NCBI GenBank assembly: GCA_965208315.1
Contig: OZ242329.1
Coordinates: 630,913-694,912, forward strand
Direction of reading: 5' to 3'
Origin: Chloroflexota bacterium
Lineage (GTDB): Bacteria > Chloroflexota > UBA11872 > VXOZ01
DNA length: 64,000 nt
Shown: positions 6,575 to 49,372 of the stretch, piece by piece
Numbering within the stretch: the stretch's first letter is position 1
Layout of the letters: each line of letters begins with the position of its first letter
Notes under the pieces: model-generated
What the model saw: the letters and a program-made list of their open reading frames with translations, nothing else
Told to the model about the DNA's origin: nothing
Database searches by the model: none
Made by a program: the position numbers and the translations under genes

Positions 6575-6934
6575 ATGGCCCCGGCGTTGGTTTTTGAAAG
6601 GCAGTACCGAACCCCCATGTCCGAGGGCTATCGCGTGCACAGGGATGGAACACAGCTTGCGCAAGTGGAATTGCATTACGCTCACACGGTTGTCTACTGC
6701 ACGCTGGTACTTTTCCAAGACCTCTCCGAACACGAGCAGTTTGCCGTAATCGAAGAGATCGACAATCACCTCGTCTTATCAGCGGAGGTGCCGCGTGAGG
6801 ATATGATGGTCACTGTTTACCGAGGCGAGGAAGTCGGGTTCTACAACGACGACATGTTCGGTCACGCGCTCGCTGAAGAGGAGAGAAAGAACACGCCGCT
6901 CCAGCCGGAAGACTCAGGGCCTTACGGAGACTAG
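6575..6934 (+). CDS. Conserved hypothetical protein (resembles a Chloroflexota-conserved small protein)
   Basis: ATG 4 nt after the nadC stop; FERQYRTPMSEGY...REDMMVTVYRGEEVGFY. The family resemblance is from memory only. Confidence 0.7.
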   Translation: MAPALVFERQYRTPMSEGYRVHRDGTQLAQVELHYAHTVVYCTLVLFQDLSEHEQFAVIEEIDNHLVLSAEVPREDMMVTVYRGEEVGFYNDDMFGHALAEEERKNTPLQPEDSGPYGD

Positions 6935-6974
6935 GCCGCCCTATACTTTGCGGCTGTGCTGAAGTGAAGCACGC

Positions 6975-7562: not shown

Positions 7563-7622
7563 GCTGGACCTTTCACATTGTGCCTTGGTGCGCTGAAACT
7601 CTCTTAAGTTAGGGTCCGGAGT

Positions 7623-8567: not shown

Positions 8568-8782
8568 GTGGTGTCCTCACCCTTCTCGAACCGCTACAAG
8601 AGATTTCACCTAAAGTATACACGTGTTCCCGCCGCGCTTGAGACAGAACCGGCCAGGCTTAACGACGACTGCCGCTGCTCCACGGGAAGACATCGATTCG
8701 TGCCAAGGCACGTTCAGCTTGCCTAGCTCTATTGTAGCCACTATGCTGAATTAAACCTGAGATTACATGAAGGAGCATAGTT

Positions 8783-9565
8783 GTGACCGTTGAACAGATC
8801 GGGCTTCGGCGCAGAATCGCGCAGAATGAAACAATGTACGGTGTCTTCGTGGATGCGCCGACTATTTCACACGTAGAAACTCTCGCCATTGCGGGCTTCG
8901 ACTTCGTCATCATCGACCAGGAGCATGGCCACATCAACGCCGAGAGTCTCGTGCATCTCGTGAGCGCCTGCGATCACTTTGGCATTGCCTCCCTGGTACG
9001 TATACCTACCCTGGCGTCCTGGCTGATTGGCCCGGCGCTCGACTGCGGTTCGTCCGGTGTGCAGGTACCCTTTGTGTCAAGCGCGGAGGAAGCCAAGGCT
9101 GCCGTTGCCGCCGCGCGGTTTGCGCCGGATGGAGAGCGTGGTGTGCACATCTTCCTACGCGGCGGGCAGTATGGCGCATTGGGCGCCGAGGGCTATTTTG
9201 CAGCCTGCAATGAGAACCAGGCCGTCGTGCTTCAGGTAGAGGGCGCGCAGGGTGTGGAAAACCTCGAAGCCATTGCCGCCGTGCCCGGCTATGACTCGAT
9301 CTTCATCGGGCCGTACGACCTCTCGCAATCCCTTGGTGTCTCCGGCCAGACCGGCCACCCGCGGGTAGTGGAAGTCATCGAGCGGACGGTAGCGCTGTGC
9401 GGGCAGCATGGCAAAGTGGTCGGCACGTTTGTAAACACGCCGGAGGACGCGGCCGCGTGGGCTAAGCGGGGGGTCAAGATGGTCTCCGTCTCGTGCGATA
9501 CGAATATCTTCTATCGCGCGTGCACCGACCTGCGGCAGGCTATAGCGGAAGCTGCGGGAACGTAG
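8783..9565 (+). CDS. HpcH/HpaI aldolase family protein
   Basis: FDFVIIDQEHG, ALDCG..GVQVP and FIGPYDLSQSLG motifs. Confidence 0.92.
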   Translation: MTVEQIGLRRRIAQNETMYGVFVDAPTISHVETLAIAGFDFVIIDQEHGHINAESLVHLVSACDHFGIASLVRIPTLASWLIGPALDCGSSGVQVPFVSSAEEAKAAVAAARFAPDGERGVHIFLRGGQYGALGAEGYFAACNENQAVVLQVEGAQGVENLEAIAAVPGYDSIFIGPYDLSQSLGVSGQTGHPRVVEVIERTVALCGQHGKVVGTFVNTPEDAAAWAKRGVKMVSVSCDTNIFYRACTDLRQAIAEAAGT

Positions 9566-9639
9566 GCACCGGCGCTGGGGCGGTTTCTTGACAAGCGAGC
9601 GGCGGGCACGCCGTCTGGTCACGCAGGATTCTCTGAGAG

Positions 9640-9718
9640 CCGTTCGTGATGAGTTCGCCTGTCCTGAGCACTTCGACAGGCTCAGCACGGGCTTGTCGAA
9701 GGGTCGCACCCTGAACGG
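9640..9718. repeat. REP-like palindromic element, family 1 (CCTGAGC/TTCGACAGGCTCAG)
   Basis: CCGTTCG...CCTGAGCACTTCGACAGGCTCAGCACGGGCTTGTCGAAGGG...GAACGG between convergent genes. Confidence 0.8.
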
Positions 9719-9745
9719 CTCTTGCCGAATTGCTAAGGGTACTCC

Positions 9746-10642
9746 TCAAAGCGGCACGTGAAGGAACTCTTTACCGAGCACAATCTCGCCGTTGAATTGA
9801 GACGCCACTTCCGCGATGGCGCGTTCTGCCTGCCCCGGCGCCGGCTCACCGAGCGTTTCGGCGCCGATGGCGCGCGTATGGTGCACCAAGACCAGGCGCT
9901 TGACTTCTGCCTCTTGCGCGAGACGACCTGTGGAGATTGTCCCCAGGTTCGCGTCACGCTCCTCTGCGCGCACGTGTGATTGGGACATGTGGCACATTGC
10001 GACCAAGGTGCCGGCGCCTTGGGCGAGTTCTAGCAAGCTCCGCCCTGGGCCGGCGTCGCCGGTGAAGACGATTGAACCGCCGTCGCTGTTGAGTCGGTAG
10101 GCCAGCGACTCAAGCCAGGGCTGCACGTGCTGGGTGGCGGCGCACACCACCTCCCAATCCGCGCCGCGGCACACGACGCCCGGCCCCACGTCCTTCACGG
10201 CCACATCCGGTGGGTTCCGCGGCAGGATGCCGCCCCGCGCCTGAAAACCGCGTACACTCACCGGGTGGTTCATTCTGGCTCGGATGTCCGGCGCGAAAGC
10301 GCCGGTATCTGGGTCTATGAGCCGGGCGGTAAGCTGCTCCGTGTACTGCGGCCCAAATACCTGCAGCCGGGCTACCTCGCCGTAGCCCGTATCCCAACGC
10401 GAAAGAAGGAAGCCGGGATAGTCCGCGTTATGATCGTAGTGGTGATGGGTAAAGAAGAGATACCCTATCTCCGACGGAGCTATTCCCATCCTCAAGAGCT
10501 TGTAGGTTGTTGCCGGCCCGCAGTCGAACATAAACTGCTCTGAACCGAGGCTGACGACATAAGAAGAACCGTATTGTGTGGCGCTCAAGCCGGGGGTGCC
10601 CGCTCCCAGAATCAGCAATCGCATTCCCATCTCTCGGATCAT
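9746..10642 (-). CDS. MBL-fold metallo-hydrolase, RNase Z/arylsulfatase-like
   Basis: LGAGTP, FDCG, FTHHHYDH, FTGD and LVLVH motifs. Confidence 0.88.
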   Translation of the reverse strand: MIREMGMRLLILGAGTPGLSATQYGSSYVVSLGSEQFMFDCGPATTYKLLRMGIAPSEIGYLFFTHHHYDHNADYPGFLLSRWDTGYGEVARLQVFGPQYTEQLTARLIDPDTGAFAPDIRARMNHPVSVRGFQARGGILPRNPPDVAVKDVGPGVVCRGADWEVVCAATQHVQPWLESLAYRLNSDGGSIVFTGDAGPGRSLLELAQGAGTLVAMCHMSQSHVRAEERDANLGTISTGRLAQEAEVKRLVLVHHTRAIGAETLGEPAPGQAERAIAEVASQFNGEIVLGKEFLHVPL

Positions 10643-10760
10643 TCCTGCCTACTGCTGGGTTCTTGTGCCTTGCTGCCAAACCGGCTAACCACGCGCCGGC
10701 TATGAACCGCATCTGCAAGATGGTGCGCGCGGGGTACGGCAAAGTGGCAAGTGGTTTCCT

Positions 10761-12719
10761 TTAGCCTTTCCACCATACGGTCCAAAAGTCAATGCTTTCA
10801 GCAGGAAAAGTCACCCGCGCCGTTACGCCCCCATCGGGCGCATTCTCAATCTTAAAAGTGCCGGACAACTCGTGGGTTACCAATTGCTCGACGATGCTCA
10901 AGCCAAGCCCAGCGTGCGTATGCAAGCTAAAGTCATCTTGCATACCCTTCCCGCTGTCCCACACTTCTATAGAGATTGTCCCGGCCTGCTCTGCGGCGAT
11001 GATCCGAATGCTGCCTACGGTACGGCCGACCATGCCGTGCATAATGGCATTTGAAACAAGCTCATTGAGCACAAGCGCAAGAAGCGTCGCTTGCTTGGAG
11101 CCGAGTTTGATTGGTTCAGAATGAACGGTAAAATCGATCTTCAGGCTTGGCGGCGCCAACTCGTTTTGGACGATCTCCATAATGCGGTTGGCGATCTCCC
11201 CTGCTGTGGCCAAACCAATATCCTCTTCAGAGAAGAGTTCATGAACGGCTGCAATGCTCTGCACCCGGGCTGCGCTTAAGGCCAAGAGTCCGGCTGCTTC
11301 TGAAGACTCGGCGCGCCTCATTTGCAGGGAGAGCAATGAAGCTACGGTCTGGAGGTTGTTCTTTACCCGGTGCTGCATCTCGCGCATGAGCACGGCTTGT
11401 GTCTCCAGCGCTCTCTGCGCTTCCCGGTACAAGCGCGCATTCTCGATGGCGAGCGCCGCATCATACGCGAACGTGGAAACGAGTTCAACCTGCTCTTCCG
11501 TGAACTCTTGCCGTTCTCGCGTAAAGACACTGATTCCGCCCAGGACCCGATCATGCGCGATGAGCGGAACGCAAAACATGGAGCGGATGCCTTCTTCCAT
11601 AATTTGGGGATACTCTGTTGTCAGAATAGGGTCATTGAGGGTGTCTTCAACTCGCACCAGTGTCTGTTCGGCAATCGAACGCCCAATCGCGCCTTCACCT
11701 ACTCTGATGCGCCACGTCTTGTATTGGTCGCTGAGGTTGTATCCCGCGACGATAAAGATTTCACGATCGTTTTCATCGATCTGGAAAATCGCCGCTTGGT
11801 CGGCGCTCGATAACTCTGCGGCATGGCGCGCAATCATCTCAAGCACCTGGCTAAGATCCAGAATTGAGGCGATCGAGGCCCCAACATGCTGCAAGGTTGT
11901 GAGCTGGCTGACTTTTTCCCGGAGCTTCTCGTCCGTTTGTTCATAGAGGCGCGCGTTCTCGATTGCAATAGCGACTTGCCCGCATACCGTTTCAGCAAAT
12001 CCAATCTCATCTTTAGAAAACTCTCGGGGCAAGTGTGTCTGTATGTCGAGAACGCCGATGAGCCTATTCACCGCAAAGAGGATGATGGGGACTGCTAGCA
12101 AACCGTGCATAGGTTCATCTATCAGCCCTGGGTCATGGACGTAGCGTGGGTCTTCCATGGCGTTTTCCAAGGCCACCGGCTCGCCGTGCTGCGCTGCCCG
12201 CCCGGTGACTCCTTCTCCAAGGTTGACATGTACCTGCCCGACTGCCACGGGGTTGAGGCCCGTCGTCGCACGCAACGTAAGGCGGTTCAACTCTTCGTCG
12301 AACAAATAGATACTGCAGTCATCGATGTTCAGCACCTCGGTTACCGCTCGCGCAGTCAGGTCTAGAACCTGCTCAAGATCCAGCGTGGAGTTGGCGACGT
12401 TATTGACCTGTTGAATCGTTGTAAGATGCCCCACGCGCGCCATCAAACTCTCGACGGTTGTAGTCTCTCTTGCTCCCGTACACTCCTGCAGGCGTTCGCG
12501 TAATGCGTTAGTGACTGTCTGCGAAAAATTGAGCAACTTGGACGTGTTCCGCTCAGATTGGTGGCTGAGAAGTGGCACAAGGAGGGCGACTCGTTCCTCA
12601 AAGGTGCGCCAGGCGGAAGTCACTTGGTCGGCATCCGGAAGCTGCTTAACCTGGAGCAACAAGGGGAGGATCACGTTCGGGTCCGGATCATCGCAAATTA
12701 CCCCTGCGAGCTCACTCAA
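10761..12719 (-). CDS. Cytoplasmic double-GAF sensor histidine kinase (HisKA_2, PdtaS/EutW-like)
   Basis: Two GAF-like segments each ending AIAIENARLY or ALAIENARLY; EMQHRVKNNLQ H-box, ELVSNAIMHG N-box, GLGL G2 box. Start codon uncertain. Confidence 0.9.
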   Translation of the reverse strand: MSELAGVICDDPDPNVILPLLLQVKQLPDADQVTSAWRTFEERVALLVPLLSHQSERNTSKLLNFSQTVTNALRERLQECTGARETTTVESLMARVGHLTTIQQVNNVANSTLDLEQVLDLTARAVTEVLNIDDCSIYLFDEELNRLTLRATTGLNPVAVGQVHVNLGEGVTGRAAQHGEPVALENAMEDPRYVHDPGLIDEPMHGLLAVPIILFAVNRLIGVLDIQTHLPREFSKDEIGFAETVCGQVAIAIENARLYEQTDEKLREKVSQLTTLQHVGASIASILDLSQVLEMIARHAAELSSADQAAIFQIDENDREIFIVAGYNLSDQYKTWRIRVGEGAIGRSIAEQTLVRVEDTLNDPILTTEYPQIMEEGIRSMFCVPLIAHDRVLGGISVFTRERQEFTEEQVELVSTFAYDAALAIENARLYREAQRALETQAVLMREMQHRVKNNLQTVASLLSLQMRRAESSEAAGLLALSAARVQSIAAVHELFSEEDIGLATAGEIANRIMEIVQNELAPPSLKIDFTVHSEPIKLGSKQATLLALVLNELVSNAIMHGMVGRTVGSIRIIAAEQAGTISIEVWDSGKGMQDDFSLHTHAGLGLSIVEQLVTHELSGTFKIENAPDGGVTARVTFPAESIDFWTVWWKG

Positions 12720-18913: not shown

Positions 18914-20239
18914 TCACGACACCTTCAACGCTTCTGATTCAGCGCGTCTGCGGTCTCGCTTGGATGCTCCGTAGTTACTATACACTTGCATCACGGCTTG
19001 GGCGAGCTTGGCCGCACTGTGCTGATAGGGAACCTCTACGTCGATCACGTCGGCGGTTATGACGGGGAGCCCGTCAATTTTCCGCTTTTCCGATTGCATT
19101 TCCACGAGCTCGTAGGAACCATTCGCCGACTGCACGGACGTTTGATCATTCGCCAACACAAGGTTGCACACGTCAGATGGCGCGTGCTGCTTGAGTGCGG
19201 CGAGGTGCTCTTCCACGCCGTAGTGGGTTGTTTCCCCGGGCTCGGTGGCCACGTTGCAGACGTAGAGCTTGAGCGCTTTAGACTCTGCAACAGCTTGGGA
19301 AATCTCCGGTACCAGCAGGTTGGGGAGAAGGCTTGTATAGAGGCTGCCGGGAGCGAGAATGATGTAGTCTGCTTCCAGGATTGCCTGGCTCGCTTCGCTG
19401 AAAGCCATGGGATGCTGCCGATCGAGATATACGCGCTTGATAGACGATCCTGCGTCCCCGACTGCGGATTCGCCGGAGACGGTGCGACCGTCCTCGAGCT
19501 CGGCGCAAAGCTTGACGCTTTCAAGGGTCGAAGGCAGTATCTGTCCGCGCACGGCAAGCACTCGCGAAAGCTCCCGGATGCCCGATTCGAAGTTGCCGGT
19601 CAGGTCGGCCATGGCAAGCATCATGAGGTTGCCGAGGCTGTGCCCTTCCAGTCCGTCACCCTTGTCGAACCGATAGTTGAGCATCCGTGTCATCAGTGGC
19701 TCGGCAATAGCCAGCGCACCGATGCATTGACGCACGTCACCGGGCGGCAGGGCGCCGAACTCCTGTCGCAGGCGCCCGGACGATCCGCCGTCATCGACGA
19801 CCGTCACGATTGCCGTCAGGTTATTCGTATACTCCTTGAGGCCGCGCAAGAGCACCGCTTGTCCGGTGCCGCCCCCAATCGTGACAATCTTCGGCCCGGT
19901 ATTGAGAATCCGGCGCGCGTACACGCGGTCCACCAGCCGCTCACCCTGGCTTGGCGCCACCACGACTTCCATAAGCGAGGCACTGAGCTTCCAGATTGCA
20001 AGGATGGTGAGAAAAAGCCCAACACTGCCTACGAGGATTTCTCGGTAGGGGTGCGGGATGAACTGGAGCGTTACGGTTTGGACGGGTTCGCTGAAGGGCT
20101 GGACGAAATCTACGTTTCGGTAGACCCAGGCAAGGGCCATGGCGCAGGCAAGGGCTAACGCCATGAATCCGATGATCAGCAGCGCAATCCACCGCTTTAC
20201 GTGCATGCCAGGGTAAAACCACTTACGGGAAGGAAACAT
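18914..20239 (-). CDS. yvcK: YvcK/GlmR-family gluconeogenesis factor with N-terminal membrane segments
   Basis: [39 protein letters not shown] and TEPGET motifs. Confidence 0.92.
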
Positions 20240-32238: not shown

Positions 32239-32594
32239 CTTTCCGTAAACAAACTGAATCTCAACTATTGCGATGGATGCCTAAGGATGGCCGCTACGGG
32301 TCGACGCGCCAGGCCAGCTCAAGATTGTCTGCGATTGGCAAGGCAACACTGTTCTATGGAGACTGCGGCCTCCGCGCGTCCTTCACAGGATCATGTCGTG
32401 CTTTCAACTCTTTCTTCAGGTAATTTGACATTCGCAGTGTACATAGCACAATAACAAGTGGCATACGTACGTTCAATGCCTAACGTCGGTGATAGGCGGT
32501 ACCAAGATACCAAGTCAACAGCGGCCACTATGATAGAATCCAATCGGACGACATTGTGAAGCGCTGCACAAGCGGGTTTGAATAGGTTTATATA

Positions 32595-34208
32595 TTGTCA
32601 AGAACACTGACGGAGCAGTCGTCGCCAAAGCAGGCGCAATCCGAGCGTCAAATCGTGTTGTACGATACGACGCTGCGTGACGGCGCGCAGGCCGAAGGTC
32701 TATCGTTCGCTGCCGCGGACAAGCTCAAGATTGCCCGGCGCTTGGATGAGCTTGGCGTCCATTACGTGGAGGGTGGCTATCCAGGTTCCAATCCCAAGGA
32801 CCAGGAATTCTTCCGGTTGGCGCAAGACATCGAGTGGCAGAACATCACGATTACGGCGTTTGGCAGCACGCGGCATAAGTCTACGAGTGTTGAGAACGAC
32901 CCGGGTGTGAAGGCGCTCATAGGCACTGGTACCCGCGCCGTTTGCATCGTGGGCAAGGCGTGGGACCATCACGTAACCGCCGTTCTTGACACGACTCTGG
33001 AGAACAATTTGGCAATGATCGGTGAGACCATTGCCTACCTCAAGCGCCACGGACTGGAAGTTTTCTTTGACGCTGAGCACTTCTTTGATGGGTATCGGGC
33101 CAATCCTGACTATGCTATGGCTGCCTTGCGTGCTGCCAGTGAGGCCGGTGCGGACTGCCTGGTGTTGTGCGACACAAACGGCGGCAGCGTCCCGAACGAT
33201 GTTAGAGACGTAACGCGCCATGTCGTGGCTGAGTTTGACGTGCCCGTTGGCATCCACGTGCACAACGACGCCGACTTGGCTACCGCCAATACCCTGGCGG
33301 CAGTGGAGTGTGGTGCTTCGCACGTTCAGGGCACGGTGAATGGCGTCGGTGAACGTTGCGGCAATGCTAATCTGTGCGCGGTGATTCCCAATCTTCAGCT
33401 CAAGCTTGGTTATACGGCAATTCAACCCGACCAGTTGCAGCATCTTTCCGACGTGGCGCGCTTTGTCAGCGAAATCGCCAACATGGCGCTCAATCCCTTT
33501 ATGCCATATGTCGGACACTCCGCCTTCGCCCATAAGGCCGGATATCACGCCGATGGCATGGCCAAGAGCCAGATAGCCTACCAGCATGTTGATCCCGCAC
33601 TCGTTGGCAATGAAATGCGCGTGCTCATTTCTGAATTGAGCGGACGCAGCAGCGTGCTTTCGCGTGCCGAACGCTTGGGATTGCGTCTATCGCGCCAAAG
33701 CGAAGACCTCCACGGCCTGGTGGAGGAGATTAAAGAGCTGGAACAACGCGGATTTCAGTTTGAAGGCGCAGAGGCGTCGTTCGAACTGCTGATCAAGCGC
33801 CGCCAGCCGGATTACACGCCACCGTTCTCACTGTTGGACTTTCTCGTTTTGGTAGAAACGCGCGGCGGGCAGAGCATTCTCTCCGAGGCGACGGTCAAGA
33901 TTCAGGTTGGTGATGAGGTCCAGCACACTGCCGCCGAAGGAAACGGGCCGGTTAACGCTTTGGATACGGCGATGCGCAAGGCTTTGATCTTTGCCTATCC
34001 GCAGTTGAGGCAGGTGCGGCTTCTGGACTATAAAGTGCGCGTGCTCGATGAAAGCAGCGCGACAGCAGCAGGCGTGCGCGTGATGATTGAGAGCACCAAC
34101 GGTCACACCGAGTGGAGCACCGTGGGGAGTTCCACGAACATCATCGAGGCGAGCTACTCCGCGCTGGCCGATTCCCTGGAATACGCAATCCTCGTGACAG
34201 ACCAATAG
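32595..34208 (+). CDS. cimA: Citramalate synthase (LeuA-family)
   Basis: YDTTLRDGAQ, GYPGSNPKD, DAEHFFDG, LCDTNGG, GERCGNA, FEGAEASFE and GNGPVNALD motifs. Start codon uncertain. Confidence 0.9.
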   Translation: MSRTLTEQSSPKQAQSERQIVLYDTTLRDGAQAEGLSFAAADKLKIARRLDELGVHYVEGGYPGSNPKDQEFFRLAQDIEWQNITITAFGSTRHKSTSVENDPGVKALIGTGTRAVCIVGKAWDHHVTAVLDTTLENNLAMIGETIAYLKRHGLEVFFDAEHFFDGYRANPDYAMAALRAASEAGADCLVLCDTNGGSVPNDVRDVTRHVVAEFDVPVGIHVHNDADLATANTLAAVECGASHVQGTVNGVGERCGNANLCAVIPNLQLKLGYTAIQPDQLQHLSDVARFVSEIANMALNPFMPYVGHSAFAHKAGYHADGMAKSQIAYQHVDPALVGNEMRVLISELSGRSSVLSRAERLGLRLSRQSEDLHGLVEEIKELEQRGFQFEGAEASFELLIKRRQPDYTPPFSLLDFLVLVETRGGQSILSEATVKIQVGDEVQHTAAEGNGPVNALDTAMRKALIFAYPQLRQVRLLDYKVRVLDESSATAAGVRVMIESTNGHTEWSTVGSSTNIIEASYSALADSLEYAILVTDQ

Positions 34209-40291: not shown

Positions 40292-40327
40292 CTTTTGTTC
40301 GGGGTATTTGGCCTATGGTATCATCAC
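40292..40327 (+). repeat. 36-bp direct repeat, copy 2 (contains the putative extended -10 of glcD)
   Basis: CTTTTGTTCGGGGTATTTGGCCTATGGTATCATCAC; TG-G-TATCAT about 55 bp upstream of the glcD ATG. Confidence 0.85.
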
Positions 40328-40379
40328 AGTGATAAGCGGGCGGCAGTGAGAAGGCAAGCATCGAGTGCAGGGGTGCGCT

Positions 40380-41831
40380 ATGGAGACACGCGAACTCGTC
40401 GGGCGATTGCAGGCAGTTGTCGGCGCGGAGCATGTTGTCTATCTGCCTGAAGACCTCATCGTCTTTGAGCGTGACGCCTCCATCGACGCGCAACTGCCCG
40501 CGGCCGTCGTCTTCCCGCGCACCACAGCCGAAGTCAGCGAAATCTTGGCGGTAGCCGGCGAACTGAAGGTACCAGTAGTGCCGAAAGGAGCCGGCACGGG
40601 CCTCTCCGGCGGCGCGGTGCCGGAAGAAAACGGCATCTTGCTCTCTGTCAGCCGGATGCGGGATATTCTCGAAATCGACGAGGAAAACCGCACTGCGCTG
40701 GTTGAGCCCGGCGTCGTAAATCTTGAGCTTTCCAGCGAAGTAAAGCACCTGGGTCTCTACTACGCCCCCGATCCATCGAGCCAGTATGCGTGTACGCTTG
40801 GCGGCAACGTCGCCGAGAACTCCGGTGGCGCTCACTGTCTGCGCTACGGCTGCACCATCAATCATGTCCTTGGGCTGGAGGTGGTCTTTCCCGGTGGCGA
40901 AGTGGCGTGGATTGGCGGCAAAGCCCCGGATGCACCGGGCTACGACCTGATGAGTGCGATTATCGGCTCTGAAGGCACCATGGGCGTGGTTACGAAGATT
41001 CTGGTTAAGCTCCTGCCGATTCCGGAGGCAGTTGAAACCTATCTTGCAATCTTCGAGAGTGTGCCGGACGCCTGTGAGGCGGTGTCTTCCATTATCGGCA
41101 ACGGCATCATCCCCGCTGCGCTTGAGATCATGGATCAGGTCGTCACCCGGGCCATAGAGGAAGCCCATCACGTCGGCTATCCTTACGACGCCGGTGGTGT
41201 GCTCATAATTGAAATCGACGGCATGCAGGAAGAACTCGATGAGCAGCGGGAGGCGATTCTGAGTCTCTGCCGCGAAGCGCGCGCCCGCGAAATCAGGGTG
41301 GCGCAGACGGCTGCCGAGCGGGAGATCGTTTGGAAGGGACGCAAGGGTGCTATTGGCGCACTCGGCCGGCTGGCGCCGAACTACTACATCCAGGACTGCG
41401 TGGTGCCCCGTACCAAACTGCCGGAGATCATGCGCTTTGTCGAGGATGTTGCCGAGCGTCATGACATAATCATCGCCAACGTCTTCCACGCCGGTGACGG
41501 CAATCTGCATCCCAATCTGCTCTTCGATGTGCGCGATAGCGACCAGGTGCGGCGTGTGATCACCGCGGGAGAAGAGATCATTAGCGCCTGCATCGACGCC
41601 GGCGGCTCGCTCTCGGGAGAACATGGCATCGGCACGGAGAAGCAAGAGTACATGGACTGGCTTTACAGCGAAGAGGATTTGGAAGCCATGCGCAAGCTCA
41701 AGCGCGCTTTCGATCCCGACTGGCTCTTCAATCCCACGAAGGTGTTCCCCACCGGCGAAGGGCCGCATGCGGCGAAAATCCACATTGGCAAGGCCCCGGT
41801 CCACGCAACGGCTGCTGCGGTCTGGAAGTAG
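40380..41831 (+). CDS. glcD: Glycolate/lactate oxidase FAD-linked subunit GlcD
   Basis: GAGTGLSGG, APDPSSQ, GGNVAENSGG, HAGDGNLHP and SGEHGIG motifs. Confidence 0.9.
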   Translation: METRELVGRLQAVVGAEHVVYLPEDLIVFERDASIDAQLPAAVVFPRTTAEVSEILAVAGELKVPVVPKGAGTGLSGGAVPEENGILLSVSRMRDILEIDEENRTALVEPGVVNLELSSEVKHLGLYYAPDPSSQYACTLGGNVAENSGGAHCLRYGCTINHVLGLEVVFPGGEVAWIGGKAPDAPGYDLMSAIIGSEGTMGVVTKILVKLLPIPEAVETYLAIFESVPDACEAVSSIIGNGIIPAALEIMDQVVTRAIEEAHHVGYPYDAGGVLIIEIDGMQEELDEQREAILSLCREARAREIRVAQTAAEREIVWKGRKGAIGALGRLAPNYYIQDCVVPRTKLPEIMRFVEDVAERHDIIIANVFHAGDGNLHPNLLFDVRDSDQVRRVITAGEEIISACIDAGGSLSGEHGIGTEKQEYMDWLYSEEDLEAMRKLKRAFDPDWLFNPTKVFPTGEGPHAAKIHIGKAPVHATAAAVWK

Positions 41832-41845
41832 GATGCAATTACGCC

Positions 41846-43186
41846 TTGCTGACTGAGACCCTCCACACCCAGCTTGCGCAAATTGCCTCACATGAGGCGA
41901 TTACTAAAGAGACTCCTACTATTGACGGCAAGCAACCGACGCTGGGTGTTGCGCCGAAATCAGTTGCTGAACTGACTGCCGTCGTTGGCGAGCTGAACCG
42001 AACTGAGGCTGCAACTATTCTTGTCGGCGGCGGCACGATGCTTGGCCTAGGCGCGCCCCCGCGGGCTGCGGAGGTGGCGCTTTGCACAGGCAATCTCAGT
42101 GCAATTTCCGGATACCAGCCCGCCGACCTCATCGTAACCGCGGAGGCGGGTGTGACCGTGGCTGCTCTTCAGGAGACGCTACGCGAACACGATCAGATGC
42201 TGCCACTCGAGGTGCCGCTGCCCGACCGGGCCACGATTGGGGGAGCAGTGGCGGCAAATGCGTGCGGGCCGTTACGCTATACGTTCGGAACTGCAAAGGA
42301 CTTGGTGATGGGGATGCAATTCGTCCAAGGGGACGGCACCCTCGTCAAAAGCGGCGGGGAGGTCGTCAAGAACGTGGCCGGGTTCGGTCTTCACAAACTG
42401 CACGTCGGCGCTCTTGGCACGTTGGGAGTGATTGCCACGGCAACGTTCAAGGTATATCCCCTGCCCAAGGCGGACCAGACCCTCGTGTTCACGTTTCCTG
42501 ACAGCGAGGCGGCCTTTGCGGCAGCCGCCGCTATGCGCACACATCAGCCTGCGGCGGCAGTAGTCGGCAATGCGTTTGCGCAGCAGTGTTTGTTTAGCGC
42601 AGTGCGCGGCGCCTACGTGTTGTTTGTCCGTTTCATGGGTGAGCAAGGTGCCGTCAGCCGACAAGTGCGCGATGCTCAAGCGGCGGGAGTTGCAGCGGGG
42701 GCGACCGCTGCGGAAGTTGTCGTGGAAGCAGATAGTGAGGCGCTGTGGCAACAGTGCGTGGACGTTGGGGCACAAGGTGCTCCTGCCGACATCTTGTTCC
42801 AGGCAAACACGGTGCCAACGGAATTGCGGCATGTCTATGCGGATTTGGTGCGTGCCGCGGAACCACTGCAGGGCAAGGCGGGTTTAATTGCTGATACTCT
42901 CAATGGATCCTTGAAGTGCGGAATTCTCCCGGCGAGCGAGCAGGAGCAAGAAACACATGATCAAAATTCGGCTTCGGCTGAGCTCCTCAGCTTCTTGCAA
43001 TACGCCCGCGCCGTGAGCCAGGAACATGGGGGCAGCCTCGTGCTGCAGCGGGGCTCGCCGGCTCTGAAGACTGCCTTTGATGTCTGGGGTCCGAGCCCGC
43101 AAGGCATGAGCATCATGCAAAATTTGAAACAAACCTTCGATCCCCACTACATCCTTAATCCAGGTCGATTTGTCGGCGACATTTAG
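41846..43186 (+). CDS. glcE: Glycolate oxidase FAD-binding subunit GlcE
   Basis: ATIGG, GGEVVKNVAGF, GTLG and FDP..ILNPGR motifs; sits between glcD and glcF. Confidence 0.88.
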   Translation: MLTETLHTQLAQIASHEAITKETPTIDGKQPTLGVAPKSVAELTAVVGELNRTEAATILVGGGTMLGLGAPPRAAEVALCTGNLSAISGYQPADLIVTAEAGVTVAALQETLREHDQMLPLEVPLPDRATIGGAVAANACGPLRYTFGTAKDLVMGMQFVQGDGTLVKSGGEVVKNVAGFGLHKLHVGALGTLGVIATATFKVYPLPKADQTLVFTFPDSEAAFAAAAAMRTHQPAAAVVGNAFAQQCLFSAVRGAYVLFVRFMGEQGAVSRQVRDAQAAGVAAGATAAEVVVEADSEALWQQCVDVGAQGAPADILFQANTVPTELRHVYADLVRAAEPLQGKAGLIADTLNGSLKCGILPASEQEQETHDQNSASAELLSFLQYARAVSQEHGGSLVLQRGSPALKTAFDVWGPSPQGMSIMQNLKQTFDPHYILNPGRFVGDI

Positions 43187-43222
43187 TAGCAGCCTATTCT
43201 TACCCGAGCGAGCAGCGTAAGC

Positions 43223-44590
43223 GTGAAAACCGATGTCGGTCAGCCGGGTCTTGTAATACCGGATAACGATAGCGAACGGGTGCGCTTTGAGGGTCTTACC
43301 GATGAAGACTTGGCCCAATGCGTCCATTGCGGCCTATGCCTTAACGCGTGCCCCACGTACCGTGAAACCGGCCTGGAGATGGAGAGTCCGCGCGGCCGCA
43401 TCTACCTCGTCAAGGCCGCCAAGGAAGAGCGCATTCCCATCAATGAGACCTTCCTGAAGCACATCTTTCTCTGTCTTGACTGCCGGGCATGTGAGACTGC
43501 ATGCCCATCGGGAGTGCAATATGGCAAGATCATCGAGGCGGCACGCGGCGAGGCCACTCTCGTAAAGCCGGGCGGTACGATTCCGCGCTCGCTGCGCTGG
43601 CTGGTGTTCAAGCAACTCTTTCCGTATCCGCGCCGCCTGAACGTGCTAGCCAACCTTCTCCGTTTCTACCAGTTTTTCGGTGTACAGTCGCTTGTGCGGC
43701 GCAGCGGCATCCTGAGGCTTTTCGGTAAGCTTCTTGAAGAAGCTGAGACGCTGCTGCCCAAGCTATCTGACGAGTTCTATGCCCCCCCGAAGGTGGAAAT
43801 TGTGCCCGCGCGGGGTGAAACGAAACACCGCGTGGGTTTCGTAACCGGCTGCATCATGCCGTACTTCTTCGGTGAGACGAACCGGGCGACGGTCAATGTG
43901 CTCACGCGCAACGGGTGTGAGGTCGTTATACCCAAGAGTCAGCGGTGCTGCGGCGCGCTCAGCACGCATGCCGGCGCCCGCGAGACGTCGAAAGACCTTG
44001 CCCGCCAGAACATCGACGCTTTTGAACCCTACGACCTGGACGTCATCATCAGCAACGCCGCCGGGTGCGGTACCGCATTGAAAGAATACGATGTCTTACT
44101 GGAGAGTGATCCAAACTACGCGGCTCGCGCGCATGCTTTCTCAGAGAAAGTGCAGGACATCAGCGAGTTCCTGGCTGAAATCGAGGTGGATACGTCGTTT
44201 GGGACCGTCGCAAAGCGTGTGACCTATCAGGATGCCTGCCACCTTGCCCACGGACAGCGCGTGCGCGCGCAGCCGCGGGCCTTACTCCAGGCAATTCCGG
44301 GGCTCGAATTTGTAGAGATGAAGAATTCCGATCACTGCTGCGGCAGCGCAGGTGTCTATAACATCGTGCAGGCCGATATGGCGCAGCGCGTCGTAGCCCC
44401 AAAAGTTAAGAACATTGAAAACACCTCAGCGGACCTGGTCGTTGTTGGCAATCCCGGCTGCATGTTGCAAATGGATAACGCCCTGGCTGCCGGTGGCGTT
44501 TCCACCCGGTCGATTCATACGATGGAGTTGCTGGAAGAAGCCTACCAGGCGGCTGAAATGAATGGAAACGGTGCTGACGGGAAGGAATAA
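43223..44590 (+). CDS. glcF: Glycolate oxidase iron-sulfur subunit GlcF
   Basis: CVHCGLCLNACPTY, CLDCRACETACPSGV and two CCG domains. Confidence 0.92.
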   Translation: MKTDVGQPGLVIPDNDSERVRFEGLTDEDLAQCVHCGLCLNACPTYRETGLEMESPRGRIYLVKAAKEERIPINETFLKHIFLCLDCRACETACPSGVQYGKIIEAARGEATLVKPGGTIPRSLRWLVFKQLFPYPRRLNVLANLLRFYQFFGVQSLVRRSGILRLFGKLLEEAETLLPKLSDEFYAPPKVEIVPARGETKHRVGFVTGCIMPYFFGETNRATVNVLTRNGCEVVIPKSQRCCGALSTHAGARETSKDLARQNIDAFEPYDLDVIISNAAGCGTALKEYDVLLESDPNYAARAHAFSEKVQDISEFLAEIEVDTSFGTVAKRVTYQDACHLAHGQRVRAQPRALLQAIPGLEFVEMKNSDHCCGSAGVYNIVQADMAQRVVAPKVKNIENTSADLVVVGNPGCMLQMDNALAAGGVSTRSIHTMELLEEAYQAAEMNGNGADGKE

Positions 44591-44708
44591 GGCATTGTGC
44601 GGGGGGCACGCGCAATTGAGGGATGCTCTTGTCGTTGTGACGATGAGGGACAGTGAGGCTACAACTATCCGTGAAGGATGACATGACTGAAGGAAGGAGT
44701 CCGGTGAG

Positions 44709-45728
44709 ATGGCTGATAATGGCGTGAAGGATCTCACGATCATTGGTGGAGGGCCCACGGGCTTATTTGGGCTATTCTATGCTGGTGTGCGGCATCTCGA
44801 CACGCAGCTTGTGGAAGCGATGGATGAAATTGGCGGCGCCCTGCAAGCGCTCTATGCAGAAAAATATGTCTATGACATGGCTGGATTTCCCGCGATCCTC
44901 GCCAAAGATCTAGTGGCGGCAATGCACGAGCAAGCTGACCAGTGGAAGTATCCGATTCACCTTTCGCAAAAGATACTCGACTTTGACGAACAAGACGGCA
45001 TCTACGTGCTCCGATCGCAGAGCGGTGAAGAGTTTAAGAGCAAGACTGTGCTTATCGCCAATGGCAATGGCGCCTTTGCGCCGCGCAAACTGAGGCTTGA
45101 AGGCGTTGAGCCATTTGAAGATTCGCAGATATTCTATACCGTCAAGAATATGGACCTCTTCCGTGACAAGCGTGTGCTGGTCATCGGCGGCGGGGACTCA
45201 GCGCTGGACTGGGCGCTTGCGCTTGAGAAAGAGGCCAAGATGGTTACGCTCATCCACCGCCTTCCGGTGTGGCAAGCACACGAGGCGACGGTCCGCCAAT
45301 TGATCATGTCGGAAGTTGACGTGCACTTTCCGCGGCACGAGGCCAACCAATTGCACGTCAACAACGGAACGCTTACGGGCGTTACCATCATCAATCTCCA
45401 GTCGAAAGAGACCTTCGATATCGAGGTAGACGTCATACTGATCTGCATTGGCTTTTTGATGGATACAACGGTCATCCGTAAGTGGGGAGTCGAGCTTGAA
45501 GGCAAGAAGGGCATTAAGGTCAATCCTGCGACAATGGAAACCAGCCGGCCCGGTGTCTACGCGGCTGGCGACATTGCCGCCTATGAAGGGAAGATAAACC
45601 TGATTGCCTGTGGGGCCTCCGAAGCGGGAATGGCAGTGAATCAGGCGGTACGGTATATTAACCCCGAAGCGCGGCTGGCTCCGGGTCACAGCAGCGATAT
45701 GGACATATTCACCAAACGGGATAAATAG
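44709..45728 (+). CDS. Thioredoxin-reductase-fold ferredoxin--NAD(P)+ reductase (YumC-like)
   Basis: GGGPTG, LYAEKYVYDMAGF, GGGDSA, AAGD and C-terminal PGHSS; no CxxC. Confidence 0.88.
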   Translation: MADNGVKDLTIIGGGPTGLFGLFYAGVRHLDTQLVEAMDEIGGALQALYAEKYVYDMAGFPAILAKDLVAAMHEQADQWKYPIHLSQKILDFDEQDGIYVLRSQSGEEFKSKTVLIANGNGAFAPRKLRLEGVEPFEDSQIFYTVKNMDLFRDKRVLVIGGGDSALDWALALEKEAKMVTLIHRLPVWQAHEATVRQLIMSEVDVHFPRHEANQLHVNNGTLTGVTIINLQSKETFDIEVDVILICIGFLMDTTVIRKWGVELEGKKGIKVNPATMETSRPGVYAAGDIAAYEGKINLIACGASEAGMAVNQAVRYINPEARLAPGHSSDMDIFTKRDK

Positions 45729-45771
45729 GGTTCATAGCAGCCGAATTCGTAACCACAGCGGAGGAACGGCA

Positions 45772-46260
45772 TTGGCCAGGCAAACGAGTGAAGTAGAGAG
45801 CGTTGACGCCCCCAAGTACGCGGCCTTGTCTCGCGACATAGAGGAATGTAAGCGCGAACCGGGTACGACTCTCGACATGCTGCACGCTGTCCAGCGCCAC
45901 TTCGGCTACCTGGAGCCCCAGGCGGTGGGAATGGTGGCAGAGGCGCTCGGACTGACGAAAGCGCAGCTCTACGGTGTCGCGACGTTCTATACGATGTTCT
46001 TCTTTGAACCGAAGCCGCCCGTGATCGCTCGTGTCTGCGTAAACCTCTCATGCCACCTGCGAGGCGCGCAGGAAATACTCCACACGTTGGAAGAGGCGGC
46101 TAAGGAACAGCACGATGCATTCGAAGTCGAAGAGGTGATGTGCTTAGGACTCTGCGAGCAGGCGCCGGCGCTTCTGGTCAATGAAGAGGCCGTCGGGCAA
46201 GTCTCTGCAGAGGAAGCGCTTGAAAAGGTACAAGCCAGCGTGGCAGGTAGTAGCAGCTAA
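45772..46260 (+). CDS. NuoE-like [2Fe-2S] subunit
   Basis: VATFYTMF, CVNLSC...CLGLC. Confidence 0.88.
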   Translation: MARQTSEVESVDAPKYAALSRDIEECKREPGTTLDMLHAVQRHFGYLEPQAVGMVAEALGLTKAQLYGVATFYTMFFFEPKPPVIARVCVNLSCHLRGAQEILHTLEEAAKEQHDAFEVEEVMCLGLCEQAPALLVNEEAVGQVSAEEALEKVQASVAGSSS

Positions 46261-46305
46261 GGCTACCGCACACATATGACCCGCCGATCGCGAGGAACGT
46301 AGGGC

Positions 46306-47661
46306 ATGGAACAAATCTGTCTGCGGCGCATACATAACGAAAACTCGCAAGACATCGAGTCATATCTGGCCCACGACGGCTATGCGGCCCTGCGCAAGGC
46401 CCTGACGGAAATGACTCCCGAAGCAGTGCACGAAGAAGTGCGGGCGTCAAATATGGGCGGTCGCGGCGGTGCGGGCTTTCCCACCGCCATGAAGTGGAAC
46501 TTCTTGGTGGGGGCCCGTGGACAGCCCAAATACGTGCTCTGCAATTTCGATGAAAGTGAACCCGGTACCTTCTCCAATCGCATCATTGGCGAGGAAGACC
46601 CCCATCTCCTCGTGGAAGGCTGCTTGTTAGCTGCGTACGCCACCGGATGTTCAATCATTTTCATCTACATTCGCGGTGAGTACTTCTTGGCCTACGAACG
46701 GGTGAAGCGCGCCATCGAGCAGGCCTACGCGCGCGGGTTGATTGGCAAGAACATACTCGGCACCGACTTCTCCGTGGAAATGCACCTGCGGCGCGGGGCC
46801 GGGGCGTACATCTGCGGAGAAGAGACCGCCATCATGAATTCTCTGGAAGGCAAGCGCGGCTACCCTCGCGCGCGGCCGCCTTTCCCGGCCAACGAAGGAC
46901 TGTTCGGCAAACCGACTCTCATCAACAACGTGGAGACGCTCTCGAACCTGCCTGATATCGTCCGCAATGGCGGTGAGTGGTGGAGCAACTTAGGGGTCAA
47001 TGAGGGAGCAGGCTTGAATATCTACTGCCTCTCCGGTCACGTGGAGCGCCCCGGCGCCTACGAACTGCCCATGGGCACCACCGCGCGTGAGCTGATTTAC
47101 GAGCACGGTGGAGGGGTCTGGCAAGGCCGGGAACTCAAGGCTTGGAAACCCGGTGGGGCCTCTAGCGCAATTTTGCCAGCGGACATGATTGATCTTGTGC
47201 TCGACTTCAAACCCGTGCAGGCCGCGGGCACGATTTTGGGAACTGCGGGTGTCATCGTGATGGACGACCGGACCTGTGTCGTTGACGCGGCGATTCGGGA
47301 CGCGACGTTCTTTGAAGAAGAATCATGCGGTTTCTGCTTCCCGTGCCGCGACGGCACACGCGTTTTGCGCATGTTGCTTGACCGTGTACGCCACGGCGTG
47401 GCCACCCCGGACACTATGGATCTCATCGAACATGCTTCTAGCGACATGATGGACGCCTCGTTCTGCGGCCTCGGCCAGTTCGCTCCGTGGCCGGTGGTGA
47501 GCACCGTGCGCAACTTCCGCAGAGAGTATGAGTCCCACATACTTGAGAGAGTGTGCCCGGCCGGCGTCTGCCCCATGGATGGCGTAGAGCCCAACGAGCA
47601 CGTCGACCGCCGTACCTTGCAAGAGATGCTTGTGGCGCAAAAGGGCGGGGCTTTGGCCTAA
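46306..47661 (+). CDS. NuoF-like FMN/NADH-binding subunit
   Basis: GRGGAGFP, DESEPGTF, GAGAYICGEETA, NNVET, ESCGFCFPCRDG and FCGLG motifs. Confidence 0.92.
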   Translation: MEQICLRRIHNENSQDIESYLAHDGYAALRKALTEMTPEAVHEEVRASNMGGRGGAGFPTAMKWNFLVGARGQPKYVLCNFDESEPGTFSNRIIGEEDPHLLVEGCLLAAYATGCSIIFIYIRGEYFLAYERVKRAIEQAYARGLIGKNILGTDFSVEMHLRRGAGAYICGEETAIMNSLEGKRGYPRARPPFPANEGLFGKPTLINNVETLSNLPDIVRNGGEWWSNLGVNEGAGLNIYCLSGHVERPGAYELPMGTTARELIYEHGGGVWQGRELKAWKPGGASSAILPADMIDLVLDFKPVQAAGTILGTAGVIVMDDRTCVVDAAIRDATFFEEESCGFCFPCRDGTRVLRMLLDRVRHGVATPDTMDLIEHASSDMMDASFCGLGQFAPWPVVSTVRNFRREYESHILERVCPAGVCPMDGVEPNEHVDRRTLQEMLVAQKGGALA

Positions 47662-47878
47662 GGCTGGAAGGCGAGAATAGGCTGCCGGGTTAGGGACCCA
47701 ACAATCAGAGCGTTTCTAAGCGATTCCTGCCAGACTTTTCTTCAATTGGGTTTGAACCCTCTCAGCCTTGCTTTTCCTTTGCCGTGACTTCTCGGCGGCG
47801 GCAAGGCCAGTGCTCGCCAGTTCATCGCTTGCGGTATCTTGCGAAAGTCCTTGCACGCTAGGTTCTGTGGACATTCAA

Positions 47879-48097
47879 TGTCATTCCGAGCGCAAGCGTC
47901 GAACAGTGTTCGCGGAATCTCAAGCGTTTGTGCAGGATTCTCTCGCGCTTTGCCCCGCAAAGTGACAGTATGATCGGATTGACAATGATACTACTTGCTT
48001 ATTTGGTTTCTTACTACCTGGTGTAGCGACGCAGTTTGGGCCGCATGAAGATGGATTCTGCGCCCCCGCACGGGGGCGAGCTTGCGCGGGAATGACG
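47879..48097. repeat. REP-like palindromes, family 2 (GTCATTCC...GGAATC / GGATTC...GGGAATGACG)
   Basis: TGTCATTCCGAGCG...GCGGAATCT near 47879-47920 and GGATTCTGCG...CGCGGGAATGACG near 48053-48097, between convergent genes. Confidence 0.65.
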
Positions 48098-48115
48098 GCA
48101 AAATGTCCACACAGC

Positions 48116-49372
48116 CTAGTTCCCCGTGTAGACTTTCGGCACCTTTAGGATGATTGCCGCGCTCAGCGCAAAGAACCCCGCCATCATGATGAATACGGCA
48201 GAATAGCCCAGCAGCGGTTGTATCCTGTTGAAGGTGTCCAGCACAACGCCCGCACTCAGGCTGGCAAGCGCGTCACCGCCGCCTGTAGCAAGGTTCGTCA
48301 GTCCCATGTAGAGCCCGGGTGCTCTCGGATCGGGAATAAGATCGATTGCCAACGCCCAATCCGAGGCAACGAAGAGGCCCACCGCCGTTCCCAGGATTGC
48401 AAAGGCAACGAGGAGCATAGGGAGATTCGCCGTAAAGAGCAAGACCCCGGATGCGATCACCCCGATGCTGCAAGCGGCAAACACCAGCTTTCGTCTGTCA
48501 GTCCTGTCCGACATCCAGCCCGCCGGCACCGTTACTAAGGCCGCCATTACGATGAGCACCGCAAGCGCCATGGTTACGTAGAGTCCTTCGTTTTCATCCA
48601 TTCCTAAGCGCTCTCGTATGAAGTAGAGCAGGATCTGGTCTGCCGCAAGCAATCCCATGAAGAAGAACAACCGAGAGAGGAGTATCCAGGCAAAGCCGGG
48701 CCTTGTGCGCAACTCTGCAAGGCGCGTGCGAAACTCGCTGAAAACTCCCGCGAATTCCGGCTTTTCCGCCAGCGGCTCCTCGCGGATTGTGAGGGCGGAG
48801 ACCACCGCCACAAACACGAGAACGCCGGCAGCGGCAAAGAGGTAATGGCCGGGTTGCCCGCGATCCAGGAATTGCCCTGCAACGAGCGCGCCGAGTAAGA
48901 CTCCAACTTGATTGGCGAGGCCGAAGAACCCAGAGGCTCGGCCCCGCTGATTCGGTGACACCAGATCGGGAATGATGCCCTGGTAGGGACCATGCGCGGA
49001 ATTGGAAGAAACTTGCAGCAGGATCACCGCTGCGAAGAGCAGGGCATAGGTGCTGACACCCGCCATGAGCAGCAGAAAGAGGGCGCTCGCAAGCGAGCCC
49101 AAGAGCATGAAGGGCCTGCGGCGGCCCCACCGTGCGGTTGTGTGGTCGCTTACCGCTCCCATTACCGGCTGGACCACGATGGCGACAACGAGGCCAACGG
49201 AAACCAAGAGGCCGAGATAGGTGCCCTTGTGCGCCGATCCTACCAGCGTTTCCACCCGGTCTGGCAAGTAGACAACATTCAGACCCGCCCAAACGGTAGA
49301 GAGCCCAAGCCAAAACAGGCTGATCCGGGCAAGAAATGGGATTGAAACGCGCTGCTTCGTCTCCTGCGCCAT
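48116..49372 (-). CDS. MFS transporter
   Basis: About 12 hydrophobic segments; GAVSD...WGRRRPF and GWMSDRTDRRK loop motifs. Confidence 0.9.
   Translation of the reverse strand: MAQETKQRVSIPFLARISLFWLGLSTVWAGLNVVYLPDRVETLVGSAHKGTYLGLLVSVGLVVAIVVQPVMGAVSDHTTARWGRRRPFMLLGSLASALFLLLMAGVSTYALLFAAVILLQVSSNSAHGPYQGIIPDLVSPNQRGRASGFFGLANQVGVLLGALVAGQFLDRGQPGHYLFAAAGVLVFVAVVSALTIREEPLAEKPEFAGVFSEFRTRLAELRTRPGFAWILLSRLFFFMGLLAADQILLYFIRERLGMDENEGLYVTMALAVLIVMAALVTVPAGWMSDRTDRRKLVFAACSIGVIASGVLLFTANLPMLLVAFAILGTAVGLFVASDWALAIDLIPDPRAPGLYMGLTNLATGGGDALASLSAGVVLDTFNRIQPLLGYSAVFIMMAGFFALSAAIILKVPKVYTGN

Follow-up and report, generated by a model that had tools for sequence, protein, structure and literature searches.

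Six co-oriented genes of a Chloroflexota bacterium, namely glcD, glcE, glcF, a reductase gene (fnr), nuoE and nuoF, raise the question of whether they encode one redox enzyme or merely stand next to each other. The genes occupy positions 40380-47661 of a 64-kb stretch of DNA (G000:C1:630913-694912; hereafter, the window) from a genome of 3.5 Mb that is represented by a single contig and is 97.9% complete. The original prediction, made from the window alone, regarded the series as a candidate undescribed redox module, either a soluble chain linking 2-hydroxyacid oxidation to NAD(H) or a complex of the reductase with NuoEF. Examination of the whole genome and its relatives does not support such a module: the complex I operon of this genome lacks nuoE and nuoF, the gene neighborhood is limited to one genus, and nothing was found in support of either the chain or the complex. 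We consider it likely that the glcDEF-like genes, fnr and nuoEF are three separate functional units, which are neighbors only in this sponge-metagenome-associated genus of uncultured Chloroflexota, and that nuoEF would provide the flavoprotein part of the NADH-oxidizing module (N-module) of the single complex I.

A complex I operon without nuoE and nuoF

The last two genes of the series are as follows.

45772-46260, + strand: nuoE, [2Fe-2S] subunit of the NADH-oxidizing module, 162 amino acids (PF01257, 121.7 bits)
46306-47661, + strand: nuoF, FMN- and NADH-binding [4Fe-4S] subunit, 451 amino acids (NF010120 and cofactor motifs)

NuoE, NuoF and NuoG form the NADH-oxidizing module, and the nuo genes are typically colocalized, as stated in the available part of PMC4453560. 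Within the 64-kb window, no genes for NuoG, hydrogenases or formate dehydrogenases were found, in agreement with what had been noted originally, and the sole NuoG match of the genome (PF10588; G000:C1:791414-791530) is located about 113 kb from nuoF. The genome contains a single NuoD match and a single NuoG match, which adjoin each other in a complex I operon on the minus strand (locus L009) with the gene order rex-nuoA-B-C-D-G-H-I-J-K-L-M-N. The nuoD-nuoG junction spans 57 nucleotides (nt), and nuoE and nuoF, which usually lie between these two genes, are missing from the operon and found in the window. The original prediction had proposed checking whether the operon lacks nuoE, nuoF and nuoG; this holds for the first two genes, whereas nuoG is retained. 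A nuoG without nuoE and nuoF needs exactly such a pair, and a cognate subunit for the pair is thus available elsewhere in the genome, contrary to what a new module would imply.

Only two genes in the genome encode NuoF domains, the nuoF of the window and a 625-amino-acid NuoE-NuoF fusion in a formate-dehydrogenase-like cluster, and the window pair is the only unfused NuoE/NuoF. Hydrogenases, searched for across the genome with PF00374 ([NiFe]) and PF02906 ([FeFe]), gave no matches. Given that the complex I operon lacks nuoE and nuoF and that the window pair has no other candidate partner, the hole in the operon matches the pair in the window. In the predicted enzyme, NuoEF would assemble onto NuoG despite the distance between their genes; NADH would reduce the FMN of NuoF, electrons would then pass via cluster N3 to NuoG and continue through NuoI and NuoB to quinone.

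The cluster with the fusion (L010, G000:C1:1018000-1036000, positions 6843-11435) is of the formate dehydrogenase type, has the NuoE-NuoF fusion as its own diaphorase and shows an unusual gene order: a 543-amino-acid molybdopterin/Molydop_binding protein is followed by the fusion and by a 375-amino-acid Fer2_4/Fer4/Molybdop_Fe4S4 protein. Located beside these genes are fdhD, in the opposite orientation, and a mobA-like gene. The order suggests a split catalytic subunit whose N-terminal iron-sulfur portion is specified by the last of the three genes.

Upstream of rex, at a distance of 30 nt, we identified a Rex-box-like site, TTGTGAtatgttTCACgt (on the strand of the gene; L009 positions 19305-19322), with three mismatches to what we take to be the Rex-box consensus; L009 contains three such matches against 0.39 expected. 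This suggests that the rex-nuo operon could be autoregulated and redox-sensing. A scan of the window from 40 to 48 kb, allowing up to three mismatches, at which the test is weak, gave no match and so lends no support to shared Rex control of nuoEF. Elsewhere in the window, a Rex-box-like site with one mismatch, TTGTGAAGCGCTGCACAA (32554-32571), precedes a LeuA/homocitrate-synthase-like gene (32595-34208) by 24 nt, and a FAD_oxidored gene comes next.

Sequence features of NuoE and NuoF

Both proteins retain the residues that bind cofactors. The nuoE gene begins with TTG, preceded by GGAGG at 7-8 nt, and both elements are kept in 16/16 sequences of the genus; the encoded protein carries the Cx4C and Cx3C motifs, with the four cysteines invariant in 17 sequences. 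NuoF comprises the Complex1_51K (PF01512), SLBB (PF10531) and NADH_4Fe-4S (PF10589) domains only, with no Fer4 domain, and includes the motifs GRGGAGFPT, NFDESEPGTF (containing DESEPG), GAGAYICGEETA and CxxCxxC...C. The residues that we take to be the four cysteines of cluster N1a, the glycine-rich FMN and NADH motifs and the four cysteines of cluster N3 are all present and invariant in the alignments. NuoF scores above the cut-off of NF010120 (423.3 bits against 389).

Motif reading and Pfam matches bear out the observation, made at the outset, that NuoF has DESEPG and lacks the additional C-terminal 2x[4Fe-4S] domain of HydB. More generally, NuoF has neither the N-terminal nor the C-terminal additional cluster domains seen in the Bfu enzymes, and the combination that marks a bifurcating module, extra clusters together with an adjacent HydA- or NuoG-like subunit, is not found here.

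The same split in sister families

To place the pair in context, NuoF was searched in 40 relatives and about 19 kb around each best match was mapped by tblastn; the nuo operons were mapped around NuoD, and open reading frames in high-GC relatives were chosen by the GC content at third codon positions. In the same genus, the split set rex-nuoABCDGHIJKLMN was present in all nine genomes fetched (of 16). In two sister families, f4 and f6 (11 genomes, L099-L109), nuoE and nuoF form a lone pair, 51-55% identical to that of the window and the sole NuoF match in each genome, and all 11 genomes have a nuoA-C-D-G-...-N operon without nuoB, nuoE or nuoF. In these families nuoA directly precedes nuoC, and a single copy of nuoB is located elsewhere in 5/5 genomes checked. 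The four annotated f4/f6 loci have a PD-(D/E)XK nuclease, a Mur-ligase-like gene, MFS transporters and RecQ among the neighbors of the pair, and neither fnr nor glcDEF. In the families f2, f3 and f5 (13 genomes), nuoF, 42-50% identical, resides within a canonical nuoA-N operon. Across the 21 mapped operons with adjoining nuoD and nuoG, the spacing of these genes is 11-65 nt, and none of the 20 related operons carries nuoE or nuoF between them.

This clade is thus characterized by complex I genes that are detached from the main operon, namely nuoEF in three families and nuoB also in two of them. As nuoB encodes an indispensable core subunit and is detached nevertheless, the detachment is a habit of the clade and no sign of a separate function.

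Phylogenetic analysis of NuoF is consistent with this conclusion. A maximum likelihood tree was built with IQ-TREE from 37 rows: the NuoF of the window, 19 rows from the 40 relatives, 16 of 120 database homologs selected by length class and name, and, as the outgroup, the formate-dehydrogenase-linked NuoE-NuoF fusion of the same genome. Only Shimodaira-Hasegawa-like approximate likelihood ratio test (SH-aLRT) support was calculated. The window NuoF, its congeners and the detached NuoFs of f4 and f6 form one clade (support 96), which is nested in a clade of short NuoFs together with the in-operon proteins of f2, f3 and f5 (support 94). A separate clade (support 97) comprises the long HndC/HydB types (516-743 amino acids).

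The glcDEF-like genes and fnr

The other genes of the series and the gene that follows it are listed below.

40380-41831, + strand: glcD-like gene, FAD-linked 2-hydroxyacid dehydrogenase subunit (FAD_binding_4 and FAD-oxidase_C)
41846-43186, + strand: glcE-like gene, second FAD-binding subunit, 446 amino acids (FAD_binding_4 and FAD-oxidase_C)
43223-44590, + strand: glcF-like gene, iron-sulfur subunit (4Fe-4S dicluster domain Fer4_8 and two CCG domains)
44709-45728, + strand: fnr, putative thioredoxin reductase (TrxR)-type ferredoxin/flavodoxin-NAD(P)+ reductase (FNR), 339 amino acids (FNR structures as top matches)
48116-49372, - strand: MFS transporter gene, convergent, downstream of nuoF

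Open reading frames together with Pfam and NCBIfam matches confirm all six genes where they had been placed, with intergenic gaps of 14, 36, 118, 43 and 45 nt in gene order, as well as the convergent gene, which encodes the MFS transporter. For glcD, the longest open reading frame begins with GTG at 40365, and 16/16 aligned sequences of the genus share the start column at ATG 40380.

The first three genes follow the GlcDEF subunit plan: D and E encode FAD_binding_4 proteins, and F, the last, an iron-sulfur/CCG protein. The NCBIfam equivalog cut-offs were used as a proxy for glycolate specificity, and none of the three proteins passes: GlcD scores 508.8 bits against TIGR00387 (cut-off 567.9), GlcE 176.4 bits against NF008439 (cut-off 284) and GlcF 286.3 bits against NF008434 (cut-off 333). 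The three subunits are predicted to form an FAD/iron-sulfur dehydrogenase acting on glycolate, D-lactate or a similar 2-hydroxyacid; judging from the family, electrons would most likely leave it via the iron-sulfur/CCG subunit GlcF to the quinone pool. Our search for literature on glycolate oxidase or glcD in sponge-linked Chloroflexi returned nothing relevant in the parts of the sources available.

The reductase is most similar to FNRs. Its closest solved structures are all of this kind (6gas_A, 2e-81; 3lzw_A, 3.7e-78; 2zbw; 3ab1), and matches to true TrxR structures reach 8e-25 at best. CxxC is absent from the protein, which keeps the GAF linker (GNGAFAP) and ends with GHSS; loss of CxxC and the GAF hinge insertion are class features of TrxR-type FNRs according to the available part of PMC8564101, and the protein accordingly fits this class of TrxR-like two-domain flavoproteins. 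Activity as a ferredoxin or flavodoxin reductase is predicted on this basis. No iron-sulfur domain was detected among its Pfam matches. According to the same part of PMC8564101, TrxRs and TrxR-like FNRs bind the NADPH 2'-phosphate through the motif HRRXXXR. In the alignment, this position is occupied by HRLPVWQ in 10/10 FNRs of the genus, with two of the three arginines lost in each, and by HRRxxFR in 6/10 relatives outside the genus. With the NADPH 2'-phosphate motif degenerate, the FNR of the genus may prefer NADH.

A gene for a 171-amino-acid thioredoxin-like [2Fe-2S] ferredoxin (3161-3676, - strand; PF01257 at 26 bits), flanked by a QueG-like gene and a gene for a succinate-dehydrogenase/fumarate-reductase-type flavoprotein, is located 41 kb away from fnr, and its product is a possible substrate of FNR.

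In the spacer between nuoF and the MFS gene, the final ~260 bp (47857-48115) are a dispersed repeat with terminal inverted repeats TGTGGACATT ... AATGTCCACA, which looks like a miniature inverted-repeat transposable element (MITE). The genome contains at least 10 further near-full-length copies (71-95% identical) and many end fragments of ~50 bp. The spacer measures 454 bp here and ~160 bp in the closest relative (L041).

A neighborhood restricted to one genus

The order glcD-E-F-fnr-nuoE-nuoF is retained in 16/16 other species of the genus, in which NuoF is 89-96% identical, along with the flanking genes. These flanking genes are unrelated to the series (an APH-like kinase, MFS, DUF6962 and a FAD oxidase), and the conservation within the genus therefore says little.

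Outside the genus, the neighborhood dissolves. Neither fnr nor glcDEF is found within ~9 kb of nuoF in any of 24 loci, and neither nuoE, nuoF nor glcDEF within ~9 kb of fnr in any of 18 loci (17 genomes of the phylum sample). TrxR-type FNRs (E <= 1e-40) were detected in 28/401 sampled genomes of the phylum, including 11/11 of the genus, 0/8 of f4 and 0/26 of f6. A bacteria-wide scan with an FNR alignment pattern, limited to one genome per species, kept 80 loci from many phyla; nuoEF lies within 7 kb of fnr in one of them, a record from the same genus, and in none of the other 79. Adjacency of fnr and glcDEF to nuoEF is restricted to the genus, and the synteny across relatives that a module would call for is not kept. 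Every comparative test put forward with the original prediction comes out against an enzyme composed of FNR and NuoEF or of GlcDEF and NuoEF. Our literature search found no published account of fnr beside nuoEF in those parts of the sources that were available.

Two further observations concern the distribution of these genes. In three related Gemmatimonadota loci (L120, L125 and L146), a TrxR-type fnr is located ~4 kb from a divergent glcD(-E-F) cluster; this proximity is probably lineage synteny and is counted as one lineage event. The stretch 40300-47700 of the window is present at shares of 0.23-0.99 in public runs labeled sponge metagenome from three studies and in full in one further study; no RNA run appeared among those listed.

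Transcription signals

Three features of the series bear on its transcription.

40295-40333, + strand: promoter-like element upstream of glcD (conservation within the genus)
44591-44708, + strand: spacer between glcF and fnr, 118 nt, conserved only at the ribosome-binding site AGGAAGGAG
45630-45659, + strand: promoter-like element in the 3' end of fnr, ATGGCA, 18 nt and TATATT (consensus scan)

The element upstream of glcD consists of TTGTTC (40295-40300), 18 nt and an extended -10-like box, TGGTATCAT (40316-40324), which is overlapped by an 11-nt perfect palindrome, ATCACAGTGAT (40323-40333). Its core, CTATGGTAT[C/T]ATCAC, is invariant in 16/16 sequences of the genus, the remaining upstream region being not alignable, and is found a single time in the window, with 0 expected; conservation of this kind points to a putative promoter. 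The palindrome, which is altered in 3/16 sequences (L052, L053 and L044), may be an operator.

The glcF-fnr spacer varies between 70 and 128 nt in 16 genomes, and the spacer between fnr and nuoE is likewise conserved only at the ribosome-binding site. Each of the 16 glcF-fnr spacers folds into hairpins, and neither a shared fold nor a T-tract terminator was seen among them; a conserved RNA structure in this spacer was accordingly rejected.

The element in the 3' end of fnr is one of two promoter-like matches in 8.6 kb and lies 112 nt upstream of the nuoE start. Here, ATGGCAGT and GGTATATTAACCCCGA are invariant in 16/16 sequences, third codon positions included. We scanned the amino-acid-invariant degenerate codons of all six genes, for which the background is 7-10% invariant third positions: in 45624-45659, 6/10 synonymous sites are invariant, tied for the highest value, which only 5/1417 overlapping windows reach, the other such site being the glcD/glcE junction. 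This constraint suggests that the element is a promoter of nuoEF's own; alternatively, it could reflect an RNA element, and read-through from upstream is also possible. We propose that transcription would start from the conserved promoter before glcD and from a second one inside the 3' end of fnr that would serve nuoEF.

Observations that weigh against the assignment

Several observations weigh against the assignment of nuoEF to complex I and the separation of the three units. NuoF falls under the cut-off of TIGR01959 (522.6 against 558.65 bits), and NuoE falls under every NuoE cut-off, the best score being 101.7 against 141 for NF005722. The solved structures with the highest scores to NuoF, 7t2r_B (470 bits) and 7q4v_B (452 bits), are HydB-type subunits of bifurcating hydrogenases, and Thermus Nqo1 (2fug_1) is lower at 415 bits. 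The placement of NuoF in the tree among the short in-operon proteins answers these higher HydB scores, although the tree itself is a quick search of hand-picked rows. With respect to transcription, a scan found no terminator-like site between any of the six genes, and the genus alignment revealed no conserved promoter for fnr itself; a gap of 43 nt between fnr and nuoE with no terminator-like site means that read-through cotranscription of all six genes is possible. Finally, adjacency within the block is maintained across all 17 species of the genus, even though GlcE identity drops to 63% in some pairs.

Alternative explanations

We regard it as unlikely that NuoEF functions on its own as a soluble NADH dehydrogenase (diaphorase) for another partner, with complex I being fed via NuoG by a different donor. 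Such a function would fit the location of the pair outside the nuo operon in three families, and modified complexes I with other input proteins are discussed in the available part of PMC4453560. However, with nuoD and nuoG as close as they are in the 21 operons, there are no replacement genes between them, the genome encodes no other NuoG-like, hydrogenase or free formate dehydrogenase partner, and the detachment of the indispensable nuoB in f4 and f6 marks the phenomenon as a habit of the clade.

There is little probability that the FNR with its degenerate NADPH motif was recruited upstream of the detached nuoEF and works with it, docked on NuoEF so that the NADH module of complex I would exchange electrons with ferredoxin or flavodoxin, or that it serves as the soluble acceptor link of GlcDEF in a glcDEF-fnr operon.

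Slimmer still are the chances of a dedicated enzyme, in which FNR and NuoEF would form one soluble complex, or FNR would dock on the N-module, for exchange between NAD(P)H and ferredoxin or flavodoxin, a small analog of the Bfu-type NfnABC/StnABC. In favor of such an enzyme, fnr directly precedes nuoE in the same orientation in 17/17 species of the genus, no terminator-like site was found between the two genes, and HRRXXXR is lost in the genus, which may let FNR share NADH with NuoF; NfnA and NfnB are also among the solved relatives (9n5u_A matches FNR at 6e-10 over residues 235-303 only, and 9n5u_B matches NuoF at 408 bits). Against it, the adjacency is absent outside the genus (0/24, 0/18 and 0/79 loci in the three surveys), and the families with the nearest detached nuoEF, f4 and f6, have no such FNR in 34 genomes. 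NuoF lacks the extra cluster domains of the Bfu enzymes, FNR lacks an iron-sulfur relay domain, and the cluster includes no third, NuoG- or HydA-like subunit. Moreover, a promoter-like element under synonymous constraint separates nuoEF from fnr, and NuoEF so occupied would leave complex I without NADH input.

A six-gene operon encoding a chain from GlcDEF through NuoEF to NAD(H), with FNR/ferredoxin as a possible second low-potential source (confurcation), is highly improbable: electron transfer from glycolate or D-lactate to NAD+ runs uphill by midpoint potentials, glcDEF is beside nuoEF in 0/24 loci outside the genus, NuoF belongs to the plain short type and lacks the domains of its bifurcating relatives, the glcF-fnr spacer is variable and unconserved, and synteny in the genus extends to unrelated flanks, all this against co-orientation, short gaps, a sole strongly conserved intergenic promoter-like element that lies upstream of glcD, the lack of a recognizable terminator in the glcF-fnr spacer, the three Gemmatimonadota fnr loci with glcD nearby and a Chloroflexus super-operon described below.

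Implications

Three separate units, with nuoEF as part of complex I, thus appear to be the likely explanation, and the locus holds a caution: stand-alone nuoEF genes beside other redox genes resemble a new enzyme until the whole genome is checked, and in this genome the gap in the complex I operon corresponds to the pair. Scoring of complex I by gene clustering could mis-score genomes of this clade, which comprises three families in the set searched. In addition, constraint at synonymous sites suggests that a coding region harbors a promoter, and the altered nucleotide-specificity motif of the FNR is a feature that can be assayed.

Comparison with known systems

Compared with the canonical 14-subunit complex I (Nqo1-14 of Thermus thermophilus and NuoA-N of Escherichia coli), the genome encodes 14/14 subunit types, and the FMN, NADH and cluster motifs are complete in NuoE and NuoF, with NuoF similar to Nqo1 at the score given above. 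The differences are the location of nuoE and nuoF, ~113 kb from the other twelve genes, and the presence of rex at the head of the main operon.

The closest precedent for dispersed nuo genes comes from the same phylum. According to the available part of Tang et al. 2011 (PMC3150298), Chloroflexus aurantiacus has a second, loose nuo set of scattered genes, in which nuoE and nuoF are far apart and outside the main cluster. Unlike the genome analyzed here, Chloroflexus aurantiacus also has a complete 14-gene operon, and its loose set is without nuoG (PMC3150298, same part); the present genome encodes only one complex I, retains nuoG in its operon and keeps nuoE next to nuoF.

The Bfu-type enzymes NfnABC/StnABC and HydABC share a NuoE/NuoF-like core with the pair, as reflected in the high scores of NuoF against HydB and NfnB chains, and NfnABC has a pyridine-nucleotide-binding flavoprotein part. 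In contrast to these enzymes, the NuoF of the window has no extra cluster domains and no adjacent HydA- or NuoG-like subunit, and falls outside the long HndC/HydB clade.

FNR is similar over its full length to Bacillus cereus FNR2 (6GAS), Bacillus subtilis YumC (3LZW) and Chlorobaculum tepidum FNR (3AB1), at 2e-81 to 2.5e-71, and shares with them the lack of CxxC, the GAF linker and the GHSS end; it differs from TrxR-type FNRs in having HRLPVWQ in place of HRRXXXR in all 10 sequences of the genus.

Finally, the three glcDEF-like genes have the same order and the same domain sets as glcDEF of E. coli, the differences being that all three proteins fall under the equivalog cut-offs and that GlcE, at 446 amino acids, has a full FAD-oxidase_C domain. 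Within the phylum, glcDEF-like genes also stand beside respiratory genes in Chloroflexus, where they are part of the respiratory Cr-ACIII super-operon, as described in the available part of PMC3150298.

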